From: a virus | IMG/VR virus record: IMGVR_UViG_3300033417_000013 | Coordinates: 1-50,855 of that record | DNA: 50,855 nt | Strand: one strand, 5' to 3' | Shown here: piece after piece, positions 8,169-40,910 of the stretch | Numbering within the stretch: position 1 is the stretch's first letter | How the letters are laid out: the number at the start of each line of letters is the position of its first letter | Position numbers and translations under genes: made by a program | The notes under the pieces: model-generated | Told to the model about the DNA's origin: nothing | Seen by the model: only the letters and a program-made list of their open reading frames with translations | Database searches by the model: none

Positions 8169-8192
8169 GAATCAAAAACGCCCCACAGGGGC
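8169..8192 (-). terminator. Intrinsic terminator (GAATCAAAAAC-hairpin element, copy 1)
   Basis: Minus strand: GCCCCTGTGGGGC followed by GTTTTTGATTC, after gene 8286..8612. Confidence 0.7.
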
Positions 8193-14262: not shown

Positions 14263-14291
14263 TAATAGAAATCTATATGGAGGGTAACACA

Positions 14292-25873: not shown

Positions 25874-27072
25874 AAGCCGCACAGCAGCGCATTACGGAGA
25901 TATTCGACATCTTCCCGCGCATTCTGGTGTCTTTCAGCGGCGGCAAAGACAGCACGGTCATGTTACATCTGGTCATGCAGGAAGCGCAGCGGCGCAACCG
26001 TAAGGCGGGTGTGCTGTGCGTTGACCTCGAAGGACAGTACAAGCTCACCATAGATCATATCCAGCGGTGTTACGACCTGTACGCTGACCACATTGAACCG
26101 TACTGGATATGTTTACCGATTGCCTTGCGTAATGCCGTGTCCAACTACGAGCCAAAATGGACATGCTGGGAACCGGGGCGCGAAAATGACTGGATACGCC
26201 AACCGCCGGACATGGCGATTACCGATCATGAGACACTTCCGTTTTATCGCTACTATCAGGGGCGAGCGATGGAGTTTGAGGAATTTGTACCGAAGTTTGG
26301 GGATTGGTACGCACAGGGCAAACTCACTGCCACGTTCGTGGGTATCCGCACGGGCGAAAGTCTTAACCGCTGGCGCACAATCGCGGGACACGGACAAAAG
26401 TTCGAGGGGCGCAATTGGACAAACCATGTCATGAAAAGCACCTGGAATGTTTACCCGATTTACGACTGGCACACGAATGACATTTGGACGTACCACGCCA
26501 AAACGAACCTGCCCTACAACCGACTGTATGACCGGATGCACCAGGCCGGGTTATCTGTTCACCAGATGCGAATCTGCCAACCCTATGGTGACGACCAGCG
26601 TAAGGGGTTGTGGCTGTTCCAGATTATCGAACCGGAGACATGGGCGCGGATTGTGGCACGGGTGAACGGCGCTAATCAGGGCGCGTTGTATGCCAACGAG
26701 TCCGGCAACATTCTAGGCCGTATCAAGATCGTCAAACCAGAAGGTCATACATGGGAATCGTTTGCTCACCTACTGCTGAACAGTATGCCGGAGAAAACCA
26801 GCGAACACTACAAGAATAAAATCGCCACATTCATCGCATGGTATCGTGACTTGGGGTATCCCGATGGTATCCCGGATAAGATGCCATCCGACCTCGAAGC
26901 GGCACGGCAAGCACCAAGCTGGCGGCGTATTTGCAAGACGCTCCTGCGTAATGACTACTGGTGCAAGGGATTGGGTTTCTCACAGCAGACAGGAACCGCA
27001 CACACACAATACAAGCAACTCATGGCGAAACGGAGGAACGAATGGGGTATCTTTCCGCTCTCAACCGACTGA
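25837..27072 (+). CDS. PAPS-reductase-like PP-loop protein with long C-terminal extension (IbrA/YbdN-like)
   Basis: PP-loop VSFSGGKDSTVM. 411 aa. GAGGAGG upstream. Paired with the ParB-like gene. Confidence 0.8.
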   Translation: MPEKVGLGISVLEAAQQRITEIFDIFPRILVSFSGGKDSTVMLHLVMQEAQRRNRKAGVLCVDLEGQYKLTIDHIQRCYDLYADHIEPYWICLPIALRNAVSNYEPKWTCWEPGRENDWIRQPPDMAITDHETLPFYRYYQGRAMEFEEFVPKFGDWYAQGKLTATFVGIRTGESLNRWRTIAGHGQKFEGRNWTNHVMKSTWNVYPIYDWHTNDIWTYHAKTNLPYNRLYDRMHQAGLSVHQMRICQPYGDDQRKGLWLFQIIEPETWARIVARVNGANQGALYANESGNILGRIKIVKPEGHTWESFAHLLLNSMPEKTSEHYKNKIATFIAWYRDLGYPDGIPDKMPSDLEAARQAPSWRRICKTLLRNDYWCKGLGFSQQTGTAHTQYKQLMAKRRNEWGIFPLSTD

Positions 27073-27671
27073 TAGACGAATTACAGCAACTTGATGACTG
27101 CGAACGCATTGAGGCGATTAATCAGGCAAAGCTGGCATTGCACGAAGTGTCGCCTATGCGTGATGAACCTGTAGACTGCGTACTGTGGGTGCTGGCGGAT
27201 ACCGTGCAAGCCAATGACTACAATCCAAATGTTGTAGCCCCGCCGGAAATGAAGTTATTGAAACACAGTATCGAGGCCGATGGTTTCACGCAGCCGATTG
27301 TCACATATCCAATTAACGGACACCGTGAGGTGATTGATGGTTTTCACCGCAATCGCGTTGGCAAAGAGGTCAAGGCGATCAAAAAACGGTTGCGCGGGTA
27401 TCTGCCGGTAACAACCATCCGGGCAGATCGTGAGGATCGTGAGAACCGGATTGCATCGACTATCCGCCACAATCGGGCACGGGGCAAACATACGGTGGAT
27501 AACATGTCTGAGATCGTGGTGGAACTATCCCGCCGTAACTGGACAGATGCGAAAATCGCGCGGGAACTTGGCATGGAATCCGATGAAGTTCTCAGGCTCA
27601 AACAGATCAGCGGCCTGGCTGAATTATTCGCAGACCGTGAATTTTCCCAAGCGTGGGAGATAGCACAATGA
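27042..27671 (+). CDS. ParB/Srx-like nuclease-domain protein (IbrB/YbdM-like)
   Basis: VIDGFHRNRVG and RHNRARGKH motifs. GGAGG 5 nt before ATG 27042. Overlaps the 3' end of the upstream gene. Confidence 0.75.
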   Translation: MGYLSALNRLIDELQQLDDCERIEAINQAKLALHEVSPMRDEPVDCVLWVLADTVQANDYNPNVVAPPEMKLLKHSIEADGFTQPIVTYPINGHREVIDGFHRNRVGKEVKAIKKRLRGYLPVTTIRADREDRENRIASTIRHNRARGKHTVDNMSEIVVELSRRNWTDAKIARELGMESDEVLRLKQISGLAELFADREFSQAWEIAQ

Positions 27672-28999: not shown

Positions 29000-29323
29000 A
29001 TGTCACTACCTAAAGGTGCAAAATGTCCCGACTGTGGGAAGGCGCAATTTAGCGAGATTTCCACTGGCAGTTTAGTGCGCTGTATCTACTGCGGGAAGGC
29101 ACACCATATTGATTTATACTGGTGGCTATCGGATACCCAGCATGATGATTATATCTTTCGCTTACGAGAAGCGTTAAAGCGCAGCAAAGTCACGCAGGTA
29201 CAATTCGCCCGGATGGTGGGATGCTCGCCTTCGCATATCAACACCGTGTTTAACGGACGCAACCATTACATTTCAAAACGTATCTGGGAAGTTGCTCGGC
29301 GATATGTCAGCTATCGGAGCTAG
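29000..29323 (+). CDS. Zn-ribbon + XRE-type HTH protein (107 aa)
   Basis: KCPDCGKA...RCIYCGKA followed by VTQVQFARMVGCSPSHINTVFNG. Confidence 0.65.
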   Translation: MSLPKGAKCPDCGKAQFSEISTGSLVRCIYCGKAHHIDLYWWLSDTQHDDYIFRLREALKRSKVTQVQFARMVGCSPSHINTVFNGRNHYISKRIWEVARRYVSYRS

Positions 29324-29349
29324 AATCAAAAACGCCCCGGCAACGGGGC
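29323..29349 (-). terminator. GAATCAAAAAC-hairpin element, copy 3 (minus-strand polarity inside a plus-strand operon)
   Basis: GCCCCGGCAACGGGGC preceded by GAATCAAAAAC on the plus strand. Confidence 0.5.
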
Positions 29350-29380
29350 ATAGGCCGGGAGAGACGGGAGAGGGGAGCTG

Positions 29381-29635
29381 ATGATATTACACAATGTCAT
29401 GATCGTCGTGAATACACACTGTGTAATGCACGATATTGTCGTCACGTCGGCAGAATTCAGAACAGCAGCAGGCTATGAATGGCTGGAAATACGAGGTCAC
29501 ATTGAGGGAACGGATACGCCCGTTGAGATGTGTATCAGTGACAACGAACCGTATCGGTGGGAGGGTGTCATAGGCAAGCCGGTTGAGGATTACAACTCTC
29601 GGCAATCGGAATCAAAAACGCCCGACCAGTCGTAA
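29381..29635 (+). CDS. Hypothetical protein (84 aa)
   Basis: GGAGAGGGGAG upstream. The 3' end overlaps terminator copy 4. Confidence 0.45.
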   Translation: MILHNVMIVVNTHCVMHDIVVTSAEFRTAAGYEWLEIRGHIEGTDTPVEMCISDNEPYRWEGVIGKPVEDYNSRQSESKTPDQS

Positions 29636-29645
29636 CCAGTCGGGC
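29609..29645 (-). terminator. Intrinsic terminator of the lysis operon (GAATCAAAAAC element, copy 4)
   Basis: GCCCGAC...GTCGGGC stem. TTTTTGATTC on the minus strand. Confidence 0.6.
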
Positions 29646-29666
29646 GTAATCGGGGGGATACCTAGT

Positions 29667-29699
29667 CAGCGCCTGCGGAGAACGGGCGCTGTTTTGTTT
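29667..29699 (+). terminator. Intrinsic terminator of the rightward operon
   Basis: CAGCGCC, 11 nt, GGCGCTG followed by TTTTGTTT. Confidence 0.65.
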
Positions 29700-30359
29700 C
29701 TAGCCTTTGTACGCAGACTGCCTTAGCCCATCAGCAACACCCCGTGCAATCTGTTCTGCAATCCCATCGCTTTCAATCTCAAGGGTTGCGAAGTTGGCTT
29801 CGATCAACTGCGGCTCTTCGCCCATATTGAACCATTTCGCGCCTTGAGGTCGAGCGATGATCGGAATTTTCAACCCAGAACCCAGCGCCGCATACGACAA
29901 TCCGGCTACGCCGAGCATGGCGAGTAGGGTAGTTGCGGTGTTTCCGAGCAGCGCCCCGATGTCGATGGCCCTGCCTAACACCTCTTGGAAACCAAAGATT
30001 TGTGCGATCATGTAGATGATACCGAAGGCCGCTACCAGTAGCGCCATAATTCGCTCAGTGTCCAAGACAGTATCAGGTAGCACAAACCGCGAACCGGCAA
30101 CCACGATGAAGAACAGAAATCCGATGACGATGCGAGTGTTGTTGCTCTCGATAAATTCACCCAGACCGCCAAACAGATTGTCGGCAATCGGCCCGGTATC
30201 CGGCACTTCGTCAACAGGATCAACCACTGGCGTTGGTTCCGGCGTAAGCGTCGGGGCAGGGGTCTGCGCTGACACAGACGGCAGCAACCCGAACAGCACG
30301 ACGAATAGCACCAGCGATACCACCGCAGCAGCCCGCCAGTTGATGTTGATTGAATTCAT
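29700..30359 (-). CDS. Multi-pass membrane protein (holin candidate), 219 aa
   Basis: N-terminal signal/TM, Pro/Thr linker, 3-4 further hydrophobic helices. Last gene of the lysis cassette. AGGAGA upstream. Confidence 0.6.
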   Translation of the reverse strand: MNSININWRAAAVVSLVLFVVLFGLLPSVSAQTPAPTLTPEPTPVVDPVDEVPDTGPIADNLFGGLGEFIESNNTRIVIGFLFFIVVAGSRFVLPDTVLDTERIMALLVAAFGIIYMIAQIFGFQEVLGRAIDIGALLGNTATTLLAMLGVAGLSYAALGSGLKIPIIARPQGAKWFNMGEEPQLIEANFATLEIESDGIAEQIARGVADGLRQSAYKG

Positions 30360-30409
30360 GTTTCGTTTCTCCTATTTGGCAACTACCCGGAAATTCCGAA
30401 TAGTTGAAT

Positions 30410-30511
30410 TCACCCGTTCGATTGTGTGTGATACGACAGCCACACCATCACCGCCGCCAGCGCAAACAGCAGCACCAGCAGGCCGCGCCACGTGATCGGT
30501 TCTTTGTGCAT
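30410..30511 (-). CDS. 33-aa single-TM peptide
   Basis: ATG directly abuts the TAG of the upstream hydrolase (TAGATG). MHKEPITWRGLLVLLFALAAVMVWLSYHTQSNG. Confidence 0.45.
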   Translation of the reverse strand: MHKEPITWRGLLVLLFALAAVMVWLSYHTQSNG

Positions 30512-32374
30512 CTACGCCGCCTCTTCAGTATTCAAATCTTCGAGCAGCAGCAGCGCCTGATAGCCTTGCGCGATTTTGTCGTTGGCTTCCGCCAGTGCCT
30601 TGAATCCATCCGACAGCAGCTTCCAGGCTTGTTTACGCGCTTCCTTCTCGGCATCGGTTGGCGGCGCTGGCTGCGTATCGTCATCCTCGATGGGCGGTTC
30701 TTCTTCGATGGGCGGCGGGGTCGGATCAGTGACCGGCGGGGTGGGGGGCGCAAACTGCTCACCGACACCATCAACAGCCACCGCCATCCAACCGATATGC
30801 GTCTTACCACCAGCGTCCACTTTCACACCGATGAACTGGTGATCATCGGCCTTATACAGGATGTCCAGGTACACCGCCAGCAGCGTATTGGCGCTCACGA
30901 CTATCAGTAACTTGCCGCGCTCATGATCGTACACGTTGCCTTCCAGGTCGGTGTGTTTGCCCGCCTCCAAGAATGGCGCGTCTAACAATTCGCGGGTCAG
31001 GGTCAGCAGCCGGGCTGTCCAGGCGCTGGACTCAACCGCTGGCAGCGGGGGAACCGGCGGGGCCGGGTCAGCCACTTCCGCAAAGGCCGAACCGGTGCCG
31101 AATAACGCCGTGCCTTTCGCGTCAGACACCCAGCCATTGCCTTCCCAATACCAGGGGTAGCCATTGCCCTCAGTTTTGGTGTCGGGGTACAGGTCGAATT
31201 CCGTACCGGCCTGTAGGGTGCGAATGACGCTGTTGGGTACGCGATCATCCGGCCCGTAGCGCAGATTGCGATTGCCACCAATGCGGACGCGCTTGGGGCT
31301 GCCGAGTGGCTGCGTCGGCTGAATTAAGGGGTTAGGTTGTGCGACCATCGGCGGCTTCTCAAATCTCGGCGCGTTTTGCGCCACTAATTTAGCGGTGTCA
31401 TTGTCCATGTGGAAATTCTTGACCTTCTTGTCCTGACCAATGCCGATGCAATACACCAGCACCCGTTTGCCGCGCAGCTGTTCGTTGTAACGCGCGTTCA
31501 ACTTGGCACTCAGTACCTCAGCGCTCATGCCCTCAGCATTCGGCCCGTGTTCACTGGTCAAGCCCCGGTCATAGTTGTATTCGCCCATGACGATGACCGG
31601 TGTGAATTTGAACTTATCCTCACACCGGCGCTGAATCAGATCAGCCGTGCGCAAGCCGTCCACATTGTTATCATCAAAGTAGCCGTTATTGCTGATGATG
31701 ACATTCGGGTTGTCGTAATCGCCCATATTGCGCTTGACGGCTTCCAGCAGCGGGTCAAGCACGCCACTGTTGAGGATCGCCGGGGCGGGGTGGTGAGTGG
31801 ACATCCGCAGCACGGCAAAGCGACAGCCTTTCGGCACGCCATAGTCCAACCGTTCGGCTTCCATCCGGGCGTAGTCGACTAACTCATCCGCGCCGATGTG
31901 TCCCTCGCAGTCGGTCACCACCAGCCAGCGCCGGGTGTGGTAGTTGTGCGCGATCACCAGATTATCGACAAATTCCCGGTACGGCAGTCGCCACATGCCC
32001 TTGTCGGTGTTGTCGGTTGCCCCCGGCGGTTGGTGGATCATGTGTCGCCAGACGATATGCATCGCCGGAATATGCGCCTGGATCATGAGCGCCCGCTGTA
32101 CCGCTTGCTCATATTGCGCCGCGCCCGTCAGGTTGACGTACCGCGCTTGGGATGCTTTCAGCAGTTCCAGGTAGCCGTCAGCGCCAAACCAGCGCCCATC
32201 CTCGTAGACGTTGCCCGCGAAGTTGAAGCTGAATGCCGACTCGCCGCCCGCCTGCGCTGTCACGTCCACCGCTGGTATCGCCTGGAACAGCGTGGTGTCG
32301 TCAACGCGCGGCGACATGGCTTCGATGTCGGGGATGAGTTTGATGCGTGAGAAGGGCGGGGTGTTGGGGGTCAT
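30512..32374 (-). CDS. Large cell-wall hydrolase candidate (endolysin?), 620 aa
   Basis: N-terminal ~330-aa alpha/beta region, SH3b-like segment (RYGPDDRVPNSVIRTLQAGTEFDLY...GYPWYW), Pro-rich linkers. Located in the lysis cassette. Confidence 0.4.
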   Translation of the reverse strand: MTPNTPPFSRIKLIPDIEAMSPRVDDTTLFQAIPAVDVTAQAGGESAFSFNFAGNVYEDGRWFGADGYLELLKASQARYVNLTGAAQYEQAVQRALMIQAHIPAMHIVWRHMIHQPPGATDNTDKGMWRLPYREFVDNLVIAHNYHTRRWLVVTDCEGHIGADELVDYARMEAERLDYGVPKGCRFAVLRMSTHHPAPAILNSGVLDPLLEAVKRNMGDYDNPNVIISNNGYFDDNNVDGLRTADLIQRRCEDKFKFTPVIVMGEYNYDRGLTSEHGPNAEGMSAEVLSAKLNARYNEQLRGKRVLVYCIGIGQDKKVKNFHMDNDTAKLVAQNAPRFEKPPMVAQPNPLIQPTQPLGSPKRVRIGGNRNLRYGPDDRVPNSVIRTLQAGTEFDLYPDTKTEGNGYPWYWEGNGWVSDAKGTALFGTGSAFAEVADPAPPVPPLPAVESSAWTARLLTLTRELLDAPFLEAGKHTDLEGNVYDHERGKLLIVVSANTLLAVYLDILYKADDHQFIGVKVDAGGKTHIGWMAVAVDGVGEQFAPPTPPVTDPTPPPIEEEPPIEDDDTQPAPPTDAEKEARKQAWKLLSDGFKALAEANDKIAQGYQALLLLEDLNTEEAA

Positions 32375-32751
32375 GGCAAATCGCTCAGAAATGGTGTCTT
32401 CAATTTGAACTCGCCGACAACAAGCGGCCCGGTCTCAATCATCATTGGGACATTCTCAAGGCCAGCTTCCACACAACGCTGGGCAATGCAATTGATACAC
32501 AATAGGCCCTGCCCATCGTGCGGGGCAATGACAGCCCACACATCATTCGGGACTAATATTTCAATCCAGGCATCATCCCCGTAAGGAATGCCGCAGTCAT
32601 AGCAACCATCAGCCACTGGTGTACCTTCCCAAGTAATCTCCGTTTTCGAGAACGCCTTGTCATGGGGTGGTCTATGCGGTAGAGGCATCATCGCGCCGGG
32701 GGTGATCGGTGGTGTATTAGGCATCGCGCCAAACCAATCTATCGTACTCAT
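32371..32751 (-). CDS. Cys-rich hypothetical protein (start uncertain)
   Basis: CYDCGIPY...LCINCIAQRC. ATGA overlap with the hydrolase gene. Possible starts at 32751, 32724 or 32763. Confidence 0.5.
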   Translation of the reverse strand: MSTIDWFGAMPNTPPITPGAMMPLPHRPPHDKAFSKTEITWEGTPVADGCYDCGIPYGDDAWIEILVPNDVWAVIAPHDGQGLLCINCIAQRCVEAGLENVPMMIETGPLVVGEFKLKTPFLSDLP

Positions 32752-32986
32752 AATCAAGTGCAATATCCTCGATTGGTTCCCAGTTGAGGTGGGGAGTCAT
32801 ATCAAATTTGGCATGGTGTTGCATGATTACCCTTACACACTTACCACGCATAAGCACTTGTTTCTTTGACTGTGCAAATTCATTCCAATCAAGGATGCGA
32901 CGATAACAACTTGGGCAATAAACATGATTGGACTTGTCCGCAGCGAAACGATTCCCGCACTTAATGCAATATTTTATTTCAGCCAT
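32717..32986 (-). CDS. Zn-ribbon protein (89 aa)
   Basis: YCIKCGNRF...YCPSCYRR. Confidence 0.55.
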   Translation of the reverse strand: MAEIKYCIKCGNRFAADKSNHVYCPSCYRRILDWNEFAQSKKQVLMRGKCVRVIMQHHAKFDMTPHLNWEPIEDIALDYEYDRLVWRDA

Positions 32987-33613
32987 CTAAGCCGCCGCTC
33001 CTGTACTCTCATTGCGTCCACTATCCACCGTCGCATCCTTCGCCCCGTCCGCATCCAACGGCTTGACGTTGCGCGGGGGCAGCGCCTCGGCTGGCGGCGG
33101 GGTGGGGTCGAATTTGCGGCGAATATCGGAGAGTATTGTCATCATGGTACTTTGTGTTTTCTGGATACTCTCTGCCAGCGCTTTGTAGGTTTCCTCACGG
33201 CCCTCACCTTTGTTTACAGCAGTCACCATGAAATTGCCTAAGCGCTCTTGCTGACTTTTCAACGCTTCAATGTTATCCGATTGCTGATCGGATTTAGCAT
33301 TGCCTAACTCCCACCGCGCCTCACGATTGCCTTCGTTTTTCGCCAGTGTTTCGAGGGTGATCTGCTGCGCACGTAGGGTAGTGTCGATATGGCCTAGCCC
33401 TTCCAACAGGCCCATGATGACCTGATGTTGGTTGGTGGCAAACTGGCTCGCCAGTTCTACGGTATGCCCATTGCCATTGCCGCTGGTAGATGGTCGCTTA
33501 ATCAACACATAGACCAACATCACCAGGACAATCCCCTGGATAACCATTGCCGCCGCAATCAGCGTCCCGCCTGGTGTAGCGAGTATTTCTCCGATGTCAA
33601 AACCTGGCGGCAT
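32987..33613 (-). CDS. N-terminal TM + coiled-coil + Pro-rich tail protein (208 aa), spanin-like architecture
   Basis: TAATG coupling to the receiver gene. TM LIAAAMVIQGIVLVMLVYVLI followed by ~120 aa of coiled coil. Confidence 0.6.
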   Translation of the reverse strand: MPPGFDIGEILATPGGTLIAAAMVIQGIVLVMLVYVLIKRPSTSGNGNGHTVELASQFATNQHQVIMGLLEGLGHIDTTLRAQQITLETLAKNEGNREARWELGNAKSDQQSDNIEALKSQQERLGNFMVTAVNKGEGREETYKALAESIQKTQSTMMTILSDIRRKFDPTPPPAEALPPRNVKPLDADGAKDATVDSGRNESTGAAA

Positions 33614-34047
33614 TAGAAAAAGCCCTCCGGTGGCGGGGTACTGGTGAGCGACCAATACAACCCTAGACTTTTGATGTTTTGCTGCAATGTCTCAGCAGTC
33701 ACCGGCTTACGGACATACACACTCGCGCCTAACCCAAAGCTGCGAATACGATCCTCCTGTTGGTCGGAATGGGTGAAGACCATCACCGGAATCAGTCGGG
33801 TTGCTGGTTGGGCTTGCATCTGTTCTAAAACCCACAGCCCATCGTGACCGTTGAGTTTAATATCAAGCATGACCAGCGTAGGCAGTCGCTTGGATTCATC
33901 CATCAGGTATTGAATCGCTGTCTTGCCGTCGCTAATATGTTCTACCGGGTTCGCAATCAACCCTTGCCGCAGTGCGCGAATGGTCAAGATAGCATCACTC
34001 TGACTATCTTCTACCAATAAGATCATCTCTAGGGCTTCACTGTTCAT
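33613..34047 (-). CDS. Single-domain response regulator receiver (CheY/Rcp1-like)
   Basis: ILLVEDSQSD (E13, D14), LVMLDIKL (D62), VMVFTHS (T92), YVRKPV (K114). 144 aa, no output domain. Confidence 0.85.
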   Translation of the reverse strand: MNSEALEMILLVEDSQSDAILTIRALRQGLIANPVEHISDGKTAIQYLMDESKRLPTLVMLDIKLNGHDGLWVLEQMQAQPATRLIPVMVFTHSDQQEDRIRSFGLGASVYVRKPVTAETLQQNIKSLGLYWSLTSTPPPEGFF

Positions 34048-34180
34048 CTAAGCCCCCGCTTGGCAGAGGCAGCGAACAACATATTGCATTACAATATTCC
34101 ACAGCGGTTGCCTCCATGATGGGTATGGTGGTAAGCGTGACACGCGCCGGGGTGCTGACAACATCCCGGCGTTTGTGCGT

Positions 34181-34405
34181 TTAGGTGATGCTCGAATTCT
34201 TGAAGTTCAGTGGCGTTACTGTGTCAATCCCCTTTGAATCCAGATCGCACAGATGCCATGCCATATCCGCAATCAACACTGGCTTAAAGTCGTACCCCTG
34301 CGGATCGAAGGCAATGTACTCGCCTGCCTCGATCATCACGGTATAGCCTAACGCCTTGAGTTCGCGCTGGCGTTTGTTCGTCGCCTTGATGGGTAATGGT
34401 GTCAT
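34181..34405 (-). CDS. Hypothetical protein (74 aa), first gene of the receiver-lysis operon
   Basis: GGGGGA upstream of ATG 34405. Confidence 0.5.
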   Translation of the reverse strand: MTPLPIKATNKRQRELKALGYTVMIEAGEYIAFDPQGYDFKPVLIADMAWHLCDLDSKGIDTVTPLNFKNSSIT

Positions 34406-34432
34406 GTTTCCCCCAAATACACACAATCGTCA

Positions 34433-34497
34433 TACGGTAATGATACCGTACATTAACACCCCTGTCAGCATAAGTATGTGCATTGTAACGCAATGCA
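34433..34497 (-). promoter_or_regulatory. Promoter CTGACA-17-TATCAT with two 7-bp inverted-repeat operators
   Basis: -35 at 34463-34468, -10 at 34440-34445. TACGGTA-4-TACCGTA at 34433-34450 (over the -10). TGCATTG-5-CAATGCA at 34479-34497. Confidence 0.55.
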
Positions 34498-34525
34498 AAC
34501 CGTGCGCATACCGGGGCAGGGGCGG

Positions 34526-34552
34526 GAATCAAAAACACCCCGGTATGGGGTG
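34526..34552 (-). terminator. Intrinsic terminator (GAATCAAAAAC element, copy 5)
   Basis: Minus strand: CACCCCATACCGGGGTG followed by TTTTTGATTC. Confidence 0.7.
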
Positions 34553-34559
34553 CTTTGTG

Positions 34560-34830
34560 ACAGTCGGAGGCTCTTAGTTACAGTATCCCTATGGACTTCT
34601 CAGGCAACGAATGCGCTTGTGCGCTGCGTTTCCGCCTGATCGCGCTGTACCTGCGGTGTGGGGGCCTTGCACCCTGTCGCCGGATTGCGTACCGGAGCGT
34701 TCCAGTCGCCCCCGCTGCTACGACGCAGCCAGCCTTGAGCGGGGCGATGTAAGAAGCCGGGGGGACAGCCCCGGCTACGAGTGAAGGAATAATACGTTGG
34801 ACGCGCATATCCCTGATGAACAGTATACTA
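34560..34830 (-). ncRNA. Candidate structured non-coding RNA or long structured 3' UTR (class unknown)
   Basis: No credible ORF. Nested GC-rich hairpins: 34755-34776, an 8-bp stem around 34707-34746, and CAGGC..GCCTG around 34601-34638. Ends at a strong terminator. Confidence 0.35.
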
Positions 34831-34892
34831 CAGAACGCCATTAGCGGCGGTTATAAGTTCGTTATAATTCGCGCCATGACTCCGGGGCAGGG

Positions 34893-35099
34893 CTACGCTC
34901 CGGGCTGGGGCGGCGGGGCAGGGGGATCGTCATCAAAAAAAATCCGCAGAACGTCGATGGGTATTGTGTCTGTGTCAGGATGCAATGCTTCTGTCAAGCG
35001 CTCGATTAGATCGTCCCGTGTCCCGTGATCGGGTTCAGTATCCCCGATGATTATCTCGGCAAGTTTACGCCGTTCGGTTTCGTCGTACAGGTCTGCCAT
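34893..35099 (-). CDS. Small highly acidic protein (68 aa)
   Basis: AGGAGG upstream. About 19 Asp/Glu, Pro-rich tail. Own extended -10 promoter. Confidence 0.6.
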   Translation of the reverse strand: MADLYDETERRKLAEIIIGDTEPDHGTRDDLIERLTEALHPDTDTIPIDVLRIFFDDDPPAPPPQPGA

Positions 35100-35150
35100 G
35101 TCGCCTCCTGGGGATAAAGTTGCGATATATGCGCTGGTCGCTTATGGCCC

Positions 35151-35159
35151 ATTATAACA
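35151..35159 (-). promoter_or_regulatory. Extended -10 promoter TGtTATAAT
   Basis: Minus strand GTGTTATAAT, about 45 nt upstream of ATG 35099. Confidence 0.55.
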
Positions 35160-35290
35160 CATTCCCGTCTGATAAGAACTCTTATATTTATAAACAAGTT
35201 GTGGTATTACTATGATAAATGTGATAAAATAAGTACATCGCAAATGAAGACAGCCAGCGAGTTCAGCGCTGGCTGTCGGTAGTCAAACAA

Positions 35291-35995
35291 ATGGAGAGTC
35301 GCATGACTACAGCACGTACTATAACAAAAAGTTGCAATGGTTGTAAGAAGGAAGTTGCATTAGTCGATTTCCACTTTCGCTCTAAGTATCGTGGTAAGAT
35401 AGTTGTTCCAACCGAACCTGCCCATGTCATAAGTGAATGCAAAACCTGTATGAGAGAACGTGGTAAAACCCAGAACCGTTTATCGCCCCATGAAACTCGA
35501 ACCGCCAGTGAGATGATGTTCATAGAGTATCTTGCATCACGTGGTGTCCCTGCCCTACCGGGCAAAGCGGTACAGTTTGCAGACGTAGACATCGTAGCCT
35601 ATGGACATATCTGGGTTGAAGTTAAATACTCAACCTTAGATTACAGTCACAACGCAAAGCGTTTTCGCTGGAGCTTCTCACCCAAGCAAGTTGAGCGCGG
35701 TGTCTATGGACACATCATTGCGCTGATCTGCGATTACGGCGAACGACAGACTTACCACCTGTTCCCCTGGGATGCGAAGTATTTCTACAATGAGGATAAT
35801 AAGCCAAAGACGGGTATCAACTTCGTACCTGGACAAATGGAAGCTGTGAAACACAAACGGCGGCATATCCTGACACAACCCGTTATGGACTTAGCGCAGG
35901 ATCGTACCAGTCTGATTAGCACTTACCTCACTCGAATTCATCATGCATTGTGTGAAGGTAAGCGCCCTGAGAGAGAGAGGCCCTTCTCTCGCTGA
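35291..35995 (+). CDS. Free-standing PD-(D/E)XK-type endonuclease with N-terminal CxxC...CxxC module
   Basis: CNGCKKEVALVDFHF...ECKTCMRERG, then FADVDIVAYGHIWVEVKYS (D..E.K). AT-rich. ATG 35303 is an alternative start. Confidence 0.6.
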   Translation: MESRMTTARTITKSCNGCKKEVALVDFHFRSKYRGKIVVPTEPAHVISECKTCMRERGKTQNRLSPHETRTASEMMFIEYLASRGVPALPGKAVQFADVDIVAYGHIWVEVKYSTLDYSHNAKRFRWSFSPKQVERGVYGHIIALICDYGERQTYHLFPWDAKYFYNEDNKPKTGINFVPGQMEAVKHKRRHILTQPVMDLAQDRTSLISTYLTRIHHALCEGKRPERERPFSR

Positions 35996-36000
35996 ACATC

Positions 36001-36016
36001 GGGGGCTTCGGCCCCC
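36001..36016 (+). terminator. Hairpin GGGGGC-TTCG-GCCCCC after the nuclease gene
   Basis: Starts 6 nt after stop 35995. The U-tract is weak. Confidence 0.4.
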
Positions 36017-36077
36017 CACTCCCTTTCATTCCCGTAACATTCCACCGCGCCAACATTACAGCGCTGTAATGCGCCCC

Positions 36078-36167
36078 TCACCCCTCTCGCATCCCGGCCC
36101 ACGCCGCCAGCGCGATCACGCACAGCAGCAGCACGACGTTGAGTGACCATTCGGTGTCGTAAGTCAT
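36078..36167 (-). CDS. 29-aa single-TM peptide, possibly leaderless
   Basis: MTYDTEWSLNVVLLLCVIALAAWAGMREG. The ATG lies 6 nt downstream of TGGTATAAT. Confidence 0.35.
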   Translation of the reverse strand: MTYDTEWSLNVVLLLCVIALAAWAGMREG

Positions 36168-36173
36168 GCTGGT

Positions 36174-36182
36174 ATTATACCA
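36174..36182 (-). promoter_or_regulatory. Extended -10 promoter TGgTATAAT
   Basis: Minus strand TGGTATAAT immediately after the stop of 36196..36840. Confidence 0.45.
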
Positions 36183-36195
36183 CGCGGCGCGGGGT

Positions 36196-36840
36196 TCATC
36201 CCGGTAGCATCCCTACTGCGAAATCATCTAATTCCAACGATGTGTTCGTATTGATACGAACCCCAAAACTACCTGACTGGCTGTATGTTGCGTCTTCCAC
36301 CTGTCCTATAAATGCCCAGCCTTCGCCCCGATTCTCGTAAGCAGCTATTGTGTCACCTCGGATACGCGCTCCAATCTGCATTCCATCTTCCAGATCGTCA
36401 ATTGCTACGGTGTCAAGCTCAGTGCCAACACCGTCATCCAACCGACCAAACGCAACATGATGATTGCCGGTGCTATCCAGAACAAACGCAACCTGATACG
36501 CATCAAAAGTAGCAATTTCCGCTGTGTCCTTTGCACGCAGTAAAAAAGCGGCAAGGGGCGTTGGTGCGCCACCCTCCGGCCCAACTATAGATAACGTTGC
36601 CGTGAGATCATAATCAGCCTTCGTGGGTGGTGTATTCCAAACACCCAGGTTTGACGTACTTCCCACAGCAACCAATCGGTTATCAACGACATCGCCCTGG
36701 CCGAATACCCACGTCCAGTTATCGTTCGCAGGGCTTTCGTTGGGCCGGTTGAAGTCGTCTAAAATGACCGCACCCTCGCCGAACGCCCCCGCTCCGCCGC
36801 CGTGCATCAGCAGGGCGAGTTTGTGTGCGTTTGTACTCAC
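36196..36840 (-). CDS. Tail-associated beta-sandwich (ConA/LamG-like lectin?) protein
   Basis: 214 aa, last gene of the tail module. DDF motifs near both termini and all-beta composition. Weak inference. Confidence 0.3.
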   Translation of the reverse strand: MSTNAHKLALLMHGGGAGAFGEGAVILDDFNRPNESPANDNWTWVFGQGDVVDNRLVAVGSTSNLGVWNTPPTKADYDLTATLSIVGPEGGAPTPLAAFLLRAKDTAEIATFDAYQVAFVLDSTGNHHVAFGRLDDGVGTELDTVAIDDLEDGMQIGARIRGDTIAAYENRGEGWAFIGQVEDATYSQSGSFGVRINTNTSLELDDFAVGMLPG

Positions 36841-37178
36841 CGCCCGCCCTCGCGTGTGGCCTGCACCCCCAGCAACCGGCGCTTGAGGATCGCCCGCAAC
36901 TGCGTATCGTCCGCTGTGTCCAGCGCGTCAATGTCGGCTTGCAGCGCCGCCGCTTCAGCGGCCTCGGCCTGCTCTGCCGGGGTCAACTGTGTGCCATCAT
37001 GCACCGCAATCACGGCAGTGGCAGTCGTCACGTCCCGATCGTCCACTTCCACCCAACCATGCCCCAGATCGCCGCGTCCGCCGTAGCCCATGCGCTCAAC
37101 GGTGATGCTAGCGGTTGTCAATTCGCCGCGTAGGATATTGTGCCGTGTTCGGCCCTCAAAGAGTATGCGTATCGTCAT
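36837..37178 (-). CDS. Hypothetical tail-module protein (113 aa)
   Basis: ATGA-type coupling. Follows the fibre gene. Confidence 0.55.
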   Translation of the reverse strand: MTIRILFEGRTRHNILRGELTTASITVERMGYGGRGDLGHGWVEVDDRDVTTATAVIAVHDGTQLTPAEQAEAAEAAALQADIDALDTADDTQLRAILKRRLLGVQATREGGR

Positions 37179-37186
37179 ATCGCCTC

Positions 37187-38647
37187 CTAAGCGCTAATCA
37201 GGTCGGGGCTGAGATTGTCGATATAACCGTGAATGTAGAAACTCATATTTTCATCCTGGGCATCGCCATAAGCGGCCCCCACCTGACTGCTGCTAACCTC
37301 AAAAACGCCTTCAAAGTTGAATGCATCAAACGACCCTGCTGTGTACATGAAGCGCGATACGCTGTTGACAAACCAGAACGTGTTTATTGTTGCTGCCGGT
37401 TGCGCGAGTTTTACATAAGCGATGACATAACGGGATGTCGTCGGCAATAGACCGCTGCAATCAATAGCTGTTGCCGCGCCTGACCCATTCCCAAGATCAG
37501 CGGCATTCAGAATGCGATAGGGCGCTGCGTCTGCTACTTCCGTAAAGCGGACTTCCCGCTTACACCCGCCACCGGCGACGGTTTTCTGTTTAATTAGGTC
37601 GCTGGTCGCATCGGTCACAACCGCCCCGACGTACCGTTTGTTGTCATCATAGCCGGTTGGCAGTGTCGGTGTGGTTGCACTCAGAGAGGCGATGAAGCCC
37701 GTACCGCTGCCGCCGCTACACATCCACACGTAGTAAATGGTATCGGATGCAATCGTACCGGTATCCAGCGCGTTAATGCCGGTGGTGGTCATATCAACCG
37801 AGCCGCCGCCGTTGGCGCTGGACATCAGGACGGCATGGGTATCATCCAGCGCCTGACCCTCAGCAATCGTGATGGCTTCGTCGCCGGTGACATTCACTTC
37901 CAGACCGATAATATGCCCGCGTGGTGTTGACCCGCCGCCACCCAACGCCAGAATGGTGGCGATTGTCGCCTCTTTAGGCGTGTTGGTGTCGTCAACATCC
38001 TTGAACACCAGCGTATCGGTATCGACGGGCGTACCCGTGTCCAACTTGTCGATGTCCAGGTTGACCGTGACGGTATCGGTTGCGCTGTCGGCTGTGCCAA
38101 TGCCCGTTCCACCCAGGATACTCAGGGTATTGCCATCGGTGATCGTCTGCCCGCCGCCCGTGTCGCCCGCAACGGTGAATGAGGTCATGCCCCCGCCGCC
38201 GCCAGTCTCGATGAAGCCGACCAGTACCCAGGTTGAACCGAAACGCACCAGATGCGCGGCCCGTCCTGTATTGTCCAGGCTGCGGTCACTGCCATCACCC
38301 GTGACGATATTGCCCGTGCCATGTTTGAGGACTACTGTGCGGGCATCATCGGCAGGCAGCAGATACAACACATCGCCATCCGCGCCGGTAATGGTGTCCA
38401 GGTCGTCGCTGGCTGCGTCGCTCTCGGTGTCCACCGTGTGCATGGACTGCGTGACGGTGATCACGCCGCTGGCTATCGTGAGTTCGGTGGCGGTCTCGAA
38501 GTTCAACTGGTCGAACGGCTGGGTGCCATTCAGCAGGTCTTCGATTGCGCCCTCAAGATCGCCGAACGGCGTGGTAAAGTCCGCCGGGTCAATCGTCGAT
38601 CCCGCCGGGCCGATGTTGCTGGTGTCTACCGTAATGTCCTGTGCCAT
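37187..38647 (-). CDS. Tail fibre / receptor-binding protein (putative)
   Basis: 486 aa, Gly/Thr/Asp-rich repeats. Position after Tal. AGGAGC upstream. Confidence 0.6.
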   Translation of the reverse strand: MAQDITVDTSNIGPAGSTIDPADFTTPFGDLEGAIEDLLNGTQPFDQLNFETATELTIASGVITVTQSMHTVDTESDAASDDLDTITGADGDVLYLLPADDARTVVLKHGTGNIVTGDGSDRSLDNTGRAAHLVRFGSTWVLVGFIETGGGGGMTSFTVAGDTGGGQTITDGNTLSILGGTGIGTADSATDTVTVNLDIDKLDTGTPVDTDTLVFKDVDDTNTPKEATIATILALGGGGSTPRGHIIGLEVNVTGDEAITIAEGQALDDTHAVLMSSANGGGSVDMTTTGINALDTGTIASDTIYYVWMCSGGSGTGFIASLSATTPTLPTGYDDNKRYVGAVVTDATSDLIKQKTVAGGGCKREVRFTEVADAAPYRILNAADLGNGSGAATAIDCSGLLPTTSRYVIAYVKLAQPAATINTFWFVNSVSRFMYTAGSFDAFNFEGVFEVSSSQVGAAYGDAQDENMSFYIHGYIDNLSPDLISA

Positions 38648-38660
38648 GTTCGCTCCTGGA

Positions 38661-38690
38661 AAACAAAAAAGCGCCTTAGTGGGCGCTTTT
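38661..38690. terminator. Bidirectional-looking intrinsic terminator before the fibre gene
   Basis: AAAAGCGCC, 6 nt, GGCGCTTTT with A/T runs on both sides. Confidence 0.65.
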
Positions 38691-38713
38691 GTGGATGGGT
38701 GGTCGGGGTGGTG

Positions 38714-38950
38714 CTAGGGCAGGAAGTAGTCTGCCGTCAATCGCACCCCGCATGTCCGGTCAATGTATTCAATACCCCCCAGCACGTAGCTGAAGACATC
38801 CGTGTAAGGGCCGATACGCGGCTCACCAAAGGTAAAGGCCTGTACACCATTTTCAACGATGGTAATGCCGGGGCAGGGTTCGCCCTGCTGGAAGGCTGTA
38901 TCTACTGGAGCTATCCACAGCATAAGTGACATCAATAATACAATCATCAT
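38714..38950 (-). CDS. Small secreted protein (moron), 78 aa
   Basis: Signal-like MMIVLLMSLMLWIAPVDTA, two Cys. GAGGG upstream. Own promoter and terminator. Confidence 0.6.
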   Translation of the reverse strand: MMIVLLMSLMLWIAPVDTAFQQGEPCPGITIVENGVQAFTFGEPRIGPYTDVFSYVLGGIEYIDRTCGVRLTADYFLP

Positions 38951-38975
38951 TCTCAACCCTCACTCTGATCTTTTG

Positions 38976-38984
38976 ATTGTATCA
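38976..38984 (-). promoter_or_regulatory. Extended -10 promoter TGaTACAAT (the TGA is the Tal stop codon)
   Basis: Minus strand TGATACAAT, about 25 nt upstream of ATG 38950. Confidence 0.45.
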
Positions 38985-40910
38985 TGAGAACACACTGATT
39001 GTCTGGATGGTTTCGTACACATCCAAATAGACTTTTACCAATCCCTGCCCACCACTGCATGAAATGACAATCGGGTGTGCTGCCTGCAAGGTTGCCACGC
39101 TGTTAATTTCATCGGTGATGTCGATCTCAGTGTCCAACCCTGTACCGCCGGAATCCAGGCCAATCCCGACTACCTGTGAATTAACCAGGATACCGATACT
39201 ATCTGGAAAGTCGGTATCATCGTTAATTCCATAGTTGAGATTATGGGTGTGCGCTGGCACACTGTGGGTATGACTGGGGATGGTTACGGTGTGCGTGTGT
39301 TCGGGCGATTCGTTGAATGAGCGCAGTGGGTCAAGGCTTTCCGAAGTCGGCAGCTCAAAGAATACAAAACCACCACTAGGGTTATCAGCGCGATATTGAC
39401 GAACGGTAAATCCACCCTCGTAAGTTTCATCACGCACCGCCCAAACATGCCTATGCGCTGTTGCGCTGCTGGTCGGGGCGCTACCGCCACCGCTACCTGA
39501 TGTTGAGCCACCGCCAGAAGCGGCCCCACTTGCCAATGCCCGGAAAGGTGATGTGACAACTCGCAGCACCACCCGGTTAATCGCCTGCACTGCATTGGTG
39601 ACATTCAATTCGAAGGTGACATTGTTGCTGCTGTCAATTTCAAACTGGTCAACATAGGTATAGTGTGAGAAATAAGGCTTCACCGAGACATTATTGATGC
39701 GTATATCTTCCAACGCACCGATCACCACCCGCGCATTGTCCACTTCGTAGCGGTCAATGTTGGCGATCTTGAGGCGCAACTGCGTCCCACGTGGCCCGTA
39801 TATCTCAGCCACTTCCATGATAAAGAAGTCACTATTAATGTCACGATACGTTACCAGTTCGCCCATGTCATTGGTAATCAGTCCTTTGTAGCGCACATGG
39901 ATTTTATCACCCGGTAGGATGTTCGTTCTGGGCTTACGCACCGTCACGCTGTAGCTCTCATACGGGTCTTTGTAACGATCCAGCCATGCCACCGCCGTAT
40001 CGTACAGCGCATTAGCAGCAGCCTCGACAGCAGCAGCGGATGTCCCGATGGGCGTTATGTCCTTAAATGTGCCGATTTTCTCAACTTGCCCGTAGCTGGT
40101 GATGCTGGCGCTGTTCTCAAGGTAGTACAGCGTTCTCCCGTCCGGCCCGGTGGTGCTTTGGATGGTATAAGGTGTGGTGCGAGTGCTGAATTCCAGGCTC
40201 AACATAGCATCGCCCTCGCCGGCCCCCAATGGCAGCAGCCAGTTGACCAGGCTTTCGCTGTCCTGAAGTTTGATAAAGCTCTCGATTAGCAACACATCAT
40301 CATTGCCCGCCAGATCACTGCGAACATGCGGCGCGTTGATAATCCGTAGGCCATTGCTGACCCCAAACGCCCCGATCTCAAGTGTGCCTGCCGTGCTGCC
40401 CTGCCGGAAGTGGATGCCCTGCTGTTGGACGACAGATTGCAGCGCCTTGAGGATACTGGCTCCGTCGAGGCGCACACTCAGCAGATCGGTGTTGTTGCCG
40501 CTGCGTGTCCACCCGGAAGTCAGCCCCAGCAGATCGTCGACAATGTCCTGCACACTGTCTGCATCATAGATACGGCCCAACAGCACGTTAGTAAACTTAA
40601 GCTCGGCAAGCAAATCAGGACCGTCCACAGTCAGCACCCAACCGCTGCTGTCGTCTTTTGCACCGATAGACTCAACAATGCCTTCAACCAACTGGCGTTG
40701 GTTATCCTGTTCATCCCACAGCAGTACCCGTACCCGGCGCTTGGGTTGTATTAAATCCAGCGCCCGTTCGTCAGTCCCTGGCAGGTCTACGGTAAAACTA
40801 CCGCAACCATCGAGTACCCTTGTCACTGAGGCGGCGGTAGTCGTCCGTATCGGGCCTTTACCCAACCGGTTGCCTGCTGCGTCAAATACCTCAACCAGAA
40901 TAGCCATCAC
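38982..40910 (-). CDS. Tail-associated protein / baseplate hub (Tal-like) with C-terminal HxH-repeat needle
   Basis: 642 aa after Dit. Gly/Ser linker, then EHTHTVTIPSHTHSVPAHTHNL. ATG 40907 is an alternative start. Confidence 0.6.
   Translation of the reverse strand: MMAILVEVFDAAGNRLGKGPIRTTTAASVTRVLDGCGSFTVDLPGTDERALDLIQPKRRVRVLLWDEQDNQRQLVEGIVESIGAKDDSSGWVLTVDGPDLLAELKFTNVLLGRIYDADSVQDIVDDLLGLTSGWTRSGNNTDLLSVRLDGASILKALQSVVQQQGIHFRQGSTAGTLEIGAFGVSNGLRIINAPHVRSDLAGNDDVLLIESFIKLQDSESLVNWLLPLGAGEGDAMLSLEFSTRTTPYTIQSTTGPDGRTLYYLENSASITSYGQVEKIGTFKDITPIGTSAAAVEAAANALYDTAVAWLDRYKDPYESYSVTVRKPRTNILPGDKIHVRYKGLITNDMGELVTYRDINSDFFIMEVAEIYGPRGTQLRLKIANIDRYEVDNARVVIGALEDIRINNVSVKPYFSHYTYVDQFEIDSSNNVTFELNVTNAVQAINRVVLRVVTSPFRALASGAASGGGSTSGSGGGSAPTSSATAHRHVWAVRDETYEGGFTVRQYRADNPSGGFVFFELPTSESLDPLRSFNESPEHTHTVTIPSHTHSVPAHTHNLNYGINDDTDFPDSIGILVNSQVVGIGLDSGGTGLDTEIDITDEINSVATLQAAHPIVISCSGGQGLVKVYLDVYETIQTISVFS

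Follow-up and report, generated by a model that had tools for sequence, protein, structure and literature searches.

The window analysed here, that is, the whole stretch of 50,855 nucleotides (nt) of the IMG/VR virus record IMGVR_UViG_3300033417_000013 (positions 1 to 50,855), is a siphovirus-like phage genome. On its minus strand, at 33613–34047, it carries a gene for a single-domain response-regulator (RR) receiver of 144 amino acids (aa), of the Rcp1/bacteriophytochrome-RR type. Directly 3' of this gene, at 32987–33613, lies a gene for a 208-aa protein with one transmembrane (TM) segment, here called the partner. Genes for an 89-aa Zn-ribbon protein, a 130-aa CxxC protein, a 620-aa putative lysin, a 33-aa TM peptide and a 219-aa membrane protein follow on the same strand. 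These downstream open reading frames (ORFs) had been listed in an initial annotation made from the letters alone, and all of them exist. What is new is the wiring: a receiver that has no kinase and is coupled to a single-pass membrane protein heads a putative lysis cassette.

A complete receiver without a kinase

The 144-aa ORF is present as initially annotated, and its product matches Pfam PF00072 (Response_reg) at 58 bits (E 1.2e-15) over profile positions 1–110 of 111; the curated cut-off of this family is 30.2 bits. Among PDB sequences, 111 receiver sequences are matched at E <= 1e-5. The top matches are single-domain RRs that are partners of bacteriophytochromes (BRRs), namely 5ic5 (E 1.2e-22), 5brj, 3heb, and 5te9. 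RcpA (1k68) and Rcp1 (1i3c) are further matches, and those of the Rcp1/BRR type range from E 1e-22 to 1e-14. The alignments to 5ic5, 5brj, and 3heb reach through the C-terminal extension LGLYWSLTSTPPPE, and the label "Rcp1-like" that had been given to this C-terminus is therefore right. The extension follows helix alpha5 and reads LGLYW..PPPEGFF. Its residues G129, L130, and W132 are invariant in an alignment of 14 receivers, seven from the related phage clade described below and seven from cells. In Rcp1 and bacteriophytochrome RRs, the LGxxW motif serves an arm-in-arm dimer. The NCBIfam model of EpsW is also among the top matches, at 51 bits, far under its cut-off of 200 bits.

Direct reading of the translation bears out the active-site residues numbered in the initial annotation, E13, D14, D62 (in LVMLDIKL), T92, and K114 (in RKPV), and the aromatic switch residue Y111 is present as well. 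Across the 14 aligned receivers D62, T92, and K114 are invariant, and the switch position is nearly so, being Y or F. The receivers of two related contigs, L001 (2991–3422) and L011 (222–653), are 91% identical to each other; they keep D62, T92, Y111, and K114, and have Asn at the metal-binding D14 position (LLVENDPDD). The ratio of nonsynonymous to synonymous substitution rates (dN/dS) within the clade, from a single unsaturated pair, is 0.115 for the receiver and 0.23 for the partner. By this ratio, the receiver is under purifying selection.

These residues also bear on an alternative in which the receiver is a phosphorylation-independent structural or adaptor subunit of the 208-aa protein, its active-site residues being kept for folding or Mg2+. 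The Asn at the D14 position in L001 and L011 fits such a role, as does the lack of an encoded phosphodonor among the families listed and by tblastn, and phosphorylation-independent receivers do occur among atypical RRs. Pseudo-receivers, however, usually lose several active-site residues, whereas here three are invariant and Y111 varies only to F. The equivalents of D62 and K114 are, moreover, invariant across the unrelated Alteromonas phage receivers discussed below, and the dN/dS is low. A purely structural role is, in our judgement, improbable.

Like Rcp1, RcpA, and the bacteriophytochrome RRs (1I3C, 1K68, 5IC5, 5BRJ, 6XVU), the product is a single receiver of ~140–150 aa with the same active site, and it carries their C-terminal LG(L/F)(Y/F)W extension. 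Unlike these proteins, whose genes lie beside that of a phytochrome histidine kinase (HK), it has the membrane/coiled-coil protein as its conserved neighbor. The phage clade also has its own beta3-alpha3 loop after the acceptor Asp, KLNGxDGLW with H or K at the variable position, where cellular homologues have KLPKxDGLE, and its own alpha5 start, VTAETL instead of VDFxxF. Neither motif occurs in the seven aligned cellular homologues (40–46% identical). Cellular homologues of the receiver reach 45–50% identity.

One of them, P0014, is 47% identical to the window receiver and comes from a cyanobacterial metagenome-assembled genome (GCA_039818555.1; L015 1098–7486). Its operon encodes, in this order, a 1,299-aa multi-PAS kinase, the single-domain receiver, and a receiver-PAS-GGDEF-EAL protein, and shows the ancestral context that the phage receiver was taken out of. 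In the window this context is missing. HisKA, HATPase_c, Hpt, and PHY are absent among the 25/33 Pfam families listed for the 69 ORFs, and a Pfam scan of the ten ORFs of the cluster found none of them either. A six-frame tblastn search of the window with the 1,299-aa HK gave nothing (best E 0.54), and gene neighborhoods show no kinase in any of the related phage loci that have the receiver pair. The earlier statement that the genome encodes neither a kinase nor an output domain is thus upheld for the families listed and for the six-frame search. With a single 144-aa domain and no kinase or output domain among these families, the locus is not a canonical two-component system. Judged by its sequence, the receiver is an ordinary member of a well-known superfamily and of the Rcp1/BRR subtype, without the cognate kinase that is the defining context of this subtype.

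Coupling to a membrane partner

The partner has a single N-terminal TM segment (about aa 13–42), which an NGNG linker joins to ~115 residues that lack proline and show heptad-like hydrophobic spacing; a Pro-rich tail follows. The stop codon of the receiver and the start codon of the partner overlap in TAATG, as the initial annotation had noted, and a Shine-Dalgarno (SD)-like GGAGGG lies within the PPEG codons of the receiver. A 1-nt stop/start overlap of this kind (TGATG or TAATG) is found in 6/7 known pairs, with a purine-rich SD-like motif in the conserved PPEG codons.

Searching 5.8 billion proteins with a profile of the partner yielded a family of seven members: the window and contigs L001, L002, L011, L012, L013, and L014. 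Contig L003 and seven further contigs repeat the pair of the window. In all seven members the receiver gene lies immediately upstream of the partner gene (Pfam-confirmed in six, by alignment in L014), and the pair is thus present in every relative that the survey of related phages found. Pairwise identities of the receivers and of the partners correlate (r = 0.92 over 15 pairs). The receivers of the clade are 50–70% identical, and the flanking replication genes vary, with DnaB, Prim-Pol, or integrase contexts; the pair has therefore been kept in phages whose backbones have diverged.

This persistence can be set against the idea that the receiver is a passenger, a recently acquired host gene (moron) that has no role in the phage. 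The family is abundant in bacteria, and identities of 45–50% to cellular homologues are what such an origin would leave. A passenger, though, would not be expected to be kept across phages with differing replication modules and receivers only 50–70% identical, or to be under purifying selection. The clade motifs are absent from the seven aligned cellular homologues, and no clade member was found in 185,579 genomes. This explanation is strongly disfavored, and we consider it very improbable.

No Lys or Arg precedes the TM segment, and two or three follow directly behind it, in six of the seven partners; the flank of the L011 partner has none within the 15 residues scored. By the positive-inside rule, the predicted topology is N-out/C-in. 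If the C-terminus is inside, the long helical domain would be cytoplasmic and within reach of a soluble receiver, a heuristic argument. Two other roles for the partner were rejected. An Rz-like i-spanin would be a type II protein with its N-terminus inside and a periplasmic coiled coil, and the heuristically predicted topology is the opposite. A kinase or Hpt surrogate is at odds with the lack of an ATPase domain, and the sole conserved-looking His shifts position among members.

No relative was detected in IMG/VR, whether the scan used the receiver, the partner, or an alignment of the partners or of the clade receivers, and a scan of GTDB genomes with the partner alignment found nothing. Across 185,579 species-representative genomes, a pattern scan with the clade motifs brought up only generic receivers with 27–30% identity and no member of the clade. 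With neither a partner nor a clade receiver in these GTDB scans, no prophage copy and no host was found.

Two more distant loci bear on the age of the pair. Two phages, L028 and L026, have an enzyme 42–49% identical to the 620-aa putative lysin at the same terminal position, and no receiver is called or Pfam-annotated among its neighbors. Directly upstream of the enzyme, L028 (5599–6216) encodes a protein remotely homologous to the partner (hhalign probability 96%, E 2.7e-9, 141 columns). In L026 the gene at this place (7127–7810) encodes the same TM-plus-helix architecture with no detectable homology to the partner. Because a TM-helix gene and the enzyme occur together there without a called receiver, the membrane/helical protein appears to be the core component of the cassette, and the receiver looks like an accessory gained by one sub-clade, an add-on to an older cassette.

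A separate observation concerns recent exchange at the locus. The receiver gene and the first 450 nt of the partner gene (within 32987–34047 of the window) are nucleotide-identical in eight metagenome contigs from different samples (L003–L010). Downstream of the identical tract the genes diverge sharply, the enzyme having 77% protein identity and L003 an extra 98-aa gene. This pattern in the aligned contigs indicates a probable recombination boundary inside or just after the partner gene.

Receivers in the lysis regions of cultured phages

Searching cultured phages with the window receiver by tblastn gave weak matches, and the loci were then inspected. Single-domain receivers of 125–153 aa were found in the lysis regions of four unrelated lineages of cultured Alteromonas phages (records OM287554, L030 3645–5189; MW043865, L031 2985–4351; KX982260, L032 2702–4643; MN877442, L033 2702–4320). 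In the siphovirus vB_AmaS-R9Y1, and also in R9Y2 and R9Y3, the order is tail fibre, gp13, gp12, and gp11, with overlapping gene ends. Here gp13 is a 121-aa protein with an N-terminal TM segment and a charged helix, gp12 is a 150-aa single-domain receiver (PF00072, 83 bits), and gp11 is an endolysin with GH108 and PG_binding_3 domains. In the podovirus vB_AmeP_R8W (Autographiviridae), the tail fibre is followed by the class II holin gp46, gp47, the receiver gp48, gp49, and TerS. The 98-aa gp47, with a TM segment and a helix, is homologous to gp13 of R9Y1 (E 8e-11), and gp48, which is 47% identical to gp12 of R9Y1, lies two genes after the annotated holin. The genome of phage H4/4 also has a 47%-identical receiver. 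In PB15, a four-TM protein, a coiled-coil protein with a C-terminal TM segment, the receiver, and an M15 peptidase are encoded in a row. The receiver gene and the start of a Pfam-supported endolysin gene overlap in both R9Y1 and PB15. In the myovirus PT11-V22, a C92-type amidase (a weak Pfam match) and the helical ORF29 precede the receiver, ORF30, and a TM/coiled-coil protein, ORF31, follows it.

Like the window receiver, these proteins are single domains with the acceptor Asp and the Lys kept in all cases; they adjoin a membrane or helical protein and come after tail-fibre genes. No kinase gene is annotated near the receiver in the four loci inspected. Unlike in the window, the order is partner and then receiver, and the endolysins belong to recognised families (GH108, M15, C92). 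The Alteromonas receivers are 22–29% identical to the window receiver and belong to another receiver subfamily. The records annotate them as hypothetical, "putative DNA-binding response regulator", "response regulator", or "hybrid sensor histidine kinase", and all are receiver-only. The paper on R8W reads gp48 as a PhoB-like auxiliary metabolic gene for low phosphate (PMC8228385). The paper on the R9Y phages does not mention the receiver, the papers on these phages draw no connection between it and lysis, and full-text literature searches gave no description of a receiver in a phage lysis cassette.

Two other kinds of phage receiver were set aside. The "cREC" receiver of the NAD+/ADP-ribose systems of jumbo phages is a divergent domain in another context. 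The match in Burkholderia phage vB_E427 is part of host-like cargo, a CusRS-like system that is complete and comes with an RND pump.

With these loci at hand, a further explanation can be weighed, in which the receiver acts as a phosphate sink or decoy. It would drain or occupy a host HK and so jam an envelope-stress or defence pathway, and the partner would only localise it or be unrelated. The initial annotation had raised such a sink as one of its two hypotheses, next to a tie between lysis timing and host signalling. Phosphate-sink CheY proteins are known, for example CheY1 of Sinorhizobium, and the absence of a kinase and an output domain from the genome (families listed; tblastn) agrees with this function. 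Helix alpha1, which contacts kinases in known RR-HK complexes, is close in the receiver (DAILTIRAL) to that of cellular homologues, and the nearest of these homologues sit in canonical HK-RR operons. Yet a sink needs no phage partner, and this receiver is always paired, mostly with start/stop coupling, to one rapidly co-diverging membrane protein. It is encoded at the late/lysis end of the genome and not among early host-takeover genes. The clade-specific changes cluster in the beta3-alpha3 loop and at the alpha5 start, that is, on output or dimer surfaces, and the same pairing recurs in the Alteromonas phage lysis regions. On this evidence, a regulator that works through the neighboring membrane protein is the better explanation, and a free phosphate sink strikes us as rather unlikely.

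The cassette and its putative lysin

The cassette lies on the minus strand at the end of the late/structural block and ends at convergent terminators, before the replication block on the opposite strand. Upstream of it, an intrinsic-terminator-like hairpin at 34526–34553 (CACCCC..GGGGTG with a TTTTTGATTC tail), which a generic terminator scan missed, closes the preceding unit ahead of the cassette promoter. The promoter candidate at 34440–34468 is sigma-70-like (CTGACA-17-TATCAT, 10/12 by consensus match). The initial annotation had placed the start of the operon here; this site is indeed the best match within 29300–36300, and the total number of promoter-like sites in this region is at chance level.

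The first ORF of the unit (34181–34426) encodes 81 aa from a TTG or, likelier, 74 aa from an ATG at 34405. It matches no family in Pfam, PHROG, or NCBIfam and has no TM segment. A 74-aa gene of L003 is 88% identical to it; L001, L002, and L011 lack a homologue. The description of the receiver as the second gene of the operon consequently applies to the window and does not extend to these relatives. Downstream of the receiver and the partner, the Zn-ribbon protein (32717–32986; 89 aa, CxxC...CxxC) has weak zinc-finger matches, and its gene is not conserved in L001, L002, L011, or L012. The next ORF (32371–32763) encodes a CxxC...CxxC protein of 130 aa from a TTG. Its true start is probably internal (~M14), giving ~115 aa, and residues 17–130 are 90% identical to a 115-aa gene of L003. 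The putative lysin gene (30512–32374) follows, and then a single-TM peptide of 33 aa (30410–30511), a candidate small holin or lysis accessory that is 70% identical to a 33-aa gene of L003. The last gene (29700–30359) encodes the 219-aa protein, which has three hydrophobic segments besides a signal peptide that looks cleavable (..PSVSA|Q). L011 (194 aa, 30% identity) and L001 (184 aa) encode homologues at this place, with weak sequence conservation. Three membrane proteins thus surround the enzyme, of 208 aa (one TM segment), 33 aa (one), and 219 aa (a signal peptide and three), and none of them matches a holin family in Pfam, PHROG, or NCBIfam.

The unit is closed by a strong intrinsic terminator at 29609–29647, with a 13-bp stem that has eight GC pairs and a TTTTTGATTCC tail. 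No strong terminator lies between it and the hairpin at 34526–34553 on the minus strand. In L001 and L011, a terminator with a stem of 14–16 bp comes right after the last TM gene, and nothing comparable occurs inside the block. Because a promoter and a terminator flank the unit and no strong terminator lies inside it in the window, L001, or L011, co-transcription of the cassette is likely on these predicted signals. The tail sequence TTTTTGATTC has five exact copies in the window (8169–8178, 14217–14226, 29323–29332, 29609–29618, and 34526–34535), all on the minus strand and each after a GC-rich hairpin. With one mismatch allowed there are 8 matches vs 2.6 expected by chance. These sites appear to be the standard intrinsic terminators of the phage, with a common tail.

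The 620-aa protein, which had been called a hydrolase, has no match in Pfam, PHROG, NCBIfam, PDB sequences, or cultured phages (tblastn). An exhaustive profile search found 86 relatives. In an alignment of 40 sequences of the N-domain family, R110 and E265 are invariant, and an NE pair, N230, and Y232 are near-invariant. An AlphaFold2 (AF2) model from this alignment has residues 45–340 at a predicted local distance difference test (pLDDT) score above 90, in eight beta/alpha units; it replaced an earlier model from 8 sequences that was unusable (pLDDT 52.6). In the model, E157 lies just after strand 4 (strand 151–153), and E265 lies in strand 7 (261–268). The top PDB match in Foldseek is the GH5 endoglucanase Cel5A (6r2j; E 1.8e-5, TM-score 0.54), and generic TIM barrels come close behind. 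In a library of viral structures, a protein of Pseudomonas phage POR1 with a GH5 domain ranks second. Of all structural matches to the barrel, BFVD entry A0A1P8DJ79, a 401-aa viral protein, is the best by a wide margin (Foldseek E 8e-17, 20% identity). A barrel with an NE...E signature is the pattern of the retaining glycosidases of clan GH-A, which the modelled domain would resemble without a sequence match to any glycoside hydrolase (GH) family. In that clan, the acid/base is the Glu of an Asn-Glu pair behind strand 4, and a Glu on strand 7 is the nucleophile; E157 and E265 are the putative equivalents.

Residues ~360–535 form SH3b-like beta domains and are followed by a Pro-rich linker and a long C-terminal helix. 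Relatives that match the C-terminal region only have the Pfam domains SH3_3, SH3_4, or GW joined to M23, NlpC/P60, GH25, M15_4, or Amidase_5, and the best PDB sequence match of the C-terminal profile is the SH3 region of an autolytic lysozyme. A catalytic barrel joined to SH3b wall-binding domains, as modelled, would be an endolysin-like architecture. The Pfam families listed for the ORFs of the genome include no further lysin domain. The initial term "hydrolase" is backed by no Pfam, PHROG, or NCBIfam family; what speaks for a glycoside-hydrolase-like enzyme is the predicted TIM barrel, the NE...E signature, and the SH3b domains. The term "lysis operon" stands in the same way on the fold, motif, and SH3b domains of the enzyme, with no sequence match to a holin, endolysin, or spanin family. 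On the model, the 620-aa protein appears to define a new TIM-barrel, GH-A-like putative lysin family with SH3b domains.

Lysins are often domain-shuffled, and the large protein encoded after the pair is so here. The 817-aa protein of L002 (1805–4258) shares only the C-terminal SH3b/coiled-coil part with the 620-aa protein, those of L001 (5058–6857) and L011 (2071–3600) share only ~90 residues with it, and that of L012 (917–2608) has nothing in common with it. Those of the positional equivalents that were queried gave no significant PDB sequence match and no tblastn match in cultured phages. Several unrecognised putative lysin domains may be hidden among the large proteins that follow the pair.

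The uncertain identity of the cassette leaves room for a reading in which the pair controls an envelope function other than lysis, such as superinfection exclusion, a block of motility or pili, anti-defence, or depolymerase secretion, and merely adjoins lysis genes. In its favor, known lysis families are not represented in the cassette by any sequence match, the Zn-ribbon genes that separate the pair from the enzyme vary, and a signal peptide such as that of the last gene is unusual in a holin. Against it, the enzyme directly follows the pair with no gene between in L002 and L012, and no terminator parts the pair from the enzyme and TM genes. In the cultured phages, moreover, the receiver gene of R9Y1 and PB15 overlaps the start of the endolysin gene, and that of R8W lies two genes past the holin. 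We regard a non-lysis function as unlikely, while giving it some weight.

Genome setting

The structural genes of the window are encoded on the minus strand, including the major head protein (587–1705), the head-morphogenesis protein (3314–4321), the portal (4321–5805), and the large terminase (5805–7412). The tape measure (41785–44208), Dit (40907–41785), and tail genes at 36196–44208 are on the same strand as the cassette and directly upstream. The replication block on the plus strand includes ERF (14277–15464) and a DnaC/IstB-like loader (20413–21354). A search of 50,697 cultured phage records found no DNA relative of positions 29000–36000. The relatives of TerL and the major capsid protein are all remote (24–35% identity), too distant for a host to be inferred from them. 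The window has no tRNA genes. It amounts to essentially all of a 50,869-bp metagenome contig on which the identical receiver is encoded.

Three further features were observed. A PAPS-reductase/DUF3440 protein of the PP-loop type (411 aa) is encoded at 25837–27072, within the plus-strand replication block, and its gene overlaps that of a protein with a weak ParB_N-like match (25837–27671 in all). A pairing of this kind is often tied to phage DNA modification. On the plus strand between the tail genes and the cassette, at 35291–35995, an HNH/endonuclease VII-like gene (PHROG 1035, E 8e-7) looks like a free-standing homing-endonuclease insertion. Glycosyltransferase genes, an unusual cargo, lie at the upstream end of the minus-strand structural block (48371–50836). 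They are identified by PHROG 2170 at 48985–50181, by Glyco_trans_1_4 and Glycos_transf_1 in two ORFs, and by Glycos_transf_2 in one, and may serve glycosylation of the virion or the host surface.

Proposed mechanism

We propose that the receiver, taken by the phage from a two-component system of a cell, is a phospho-switch without a kinase. Given the translational coupling of their genes, the receiver and its single-pass membrane partner would be made together, probably in fixed proportion. The receiver would bind the predicted cytoplasmic helical domain of the partner, and its phosphorylation state would be set by a host HK or by acetyl-phosphate. Phosphorylation would change the activity or the oligomeric state of the partner and so tune when the cassette, with its enzyme, small TM peptide, and signal-peptide multi-TM protein, disrupts the envelope. 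That a kinase-less receiver phosphorylated by host donors acts on a membrane partner to tune envelope disruption is our preferred reading, held tentatively and a little short of probable. What the data show is the identity of the receiver with its complete active site, its strict pairing and coupling with the membrane protein, the absence of a kinase from the families listed and by tblastn, a single-unit layout by promoter and terminator signals, and the recurrence of such pairs in Pfam-supported lysis regions of Alteromonas phages. We infer that the two proteins bind, where the phosphate comes from, in which direction the effect goes, and that the window cassette acts in lysis.

Several points weigh against this proposal. 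Adjacency and coupling prove co-expression and not binding, and both the topology and the coiled-coil character of the partner are heuristic predictions. Given the Asn at the D14 position in L001 and L011, phosphorylation of the receiver may not be essential in all clade members. By sequence, the products of the cassette have no counterpart among the known holin, endolysin, or spanin families of Pfam, PHROG, or NCBIfam. The enzyme of the window has Cys156 (DCE), just before E157, where its family has a near-invariant Asn (DNE), and the 620-aa protein could instead serve to depolymerise polysaccharides or to hydrolyse the wall as part of the virion. For the large proteins at the same place in L001, L002, L011, and L012, Pfam gave a weak SH3_3 match, no other family, and no catalytic domain. 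Finally, the Alteromonas pairs are not homologous to the pair of the window (partners, hhalign probability 4%); they are analogous, which in turn makes their recurrence more telling.

A close functional precedent is found in Myxococcus xanthus, where the phosphorylated single-domain RR EpsW binds the membrane enzyme EpsZ directly and promotes its active oligomeric state (PMC12802240). The action proposed for the window receiver is likewise post-translational, by a phosphorylated single-domain RR on a membrane protein. Unlike the window receiver, EpsW is cellular and fed by the Dif chemosensory kinase, and its target is a phosphoglycosyl transferase.

Within phage biology, the closest analogy is the action of RI on the holin T. 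In T4 lysis inhibition, superinfection is sensed in the periplasm by the antiholin RI, and it is the periplasmic domain of T that RI binds. There, as proposed here, a phage accessory protein acts on a single-pass membrane protein and shifts lysis timing upon a signal. Unlike in T4, the sensor of the window is cytoplasmic, the partner domain is predicted to be cytoplasmic, and there is no sequence relationship.

Signalling is linked to lysis in two other systems. In the LytSR system of Staphylococcus, LytR is a DNA-binding transcriptional regulator of the holin-like cid/lrg genes and has its own kinase, LytS. Two-component signalling is tied there, as is proposed here, to holin/antiholin-like membrane proteins and lysis, although the window receiver has neither an output domain nor a kinase. 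VqmA-Phi of vibriophage VP882 is a ligand-binding transcription factor that controls the lysogeny-lysis switch (PMC10426928). It resembles the proposed system in being a phage copy of a host signalling receptor without the signal-producing half, through which host information steers lysis. The protein of the window, by contrast, is a phospho-receiver with no DNA-binding domain and is encoded in a late putative lysis cassette.

Implications for phage lysis

For a lytic phage, no life-history trait counts more than the timing of lysis, and an internal holin clock is believed to set it for the most part. To our knowledge, few signal inputs to lysis have been described, among them T4 lysis inhibition and the quorum-sensing control of lysogeny. 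Host two-component signalling reports nutrients, envelope stress, light, and redox state. If the proposed mechanism holds, a phospho-receiver in the lysis cassette would link this signalling directly to the moment of lysis.

The Alteromonas loci also allow a broader conjecture, which is possible but on balance doubtful: receiver and membrane-anchor pairs may be a widespread, unrecognised class of phage lysis regulators, captured repeatedly in unrelated lineages (the soil siphovirus clade and the sipho-, podo-, and myoviruses of Alteromonas), in which host kinase activity or acetyl-phosphate sets the lysis time. If so, the energetic, envelope, or environmental state of the host would set the time of lysis. 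The Alteromonas phages R9Y1 and R8W make this idea testable now in a tractable host. The window and the Alteromonas loci also show that orphan receivers in viral genomes should not be taken by default for transcriptional or metabolic auxiliaries. The pairing of receiver and membrane protein in the window clade and in cultured marine phages suggests that phages read host signalling to time lysis.

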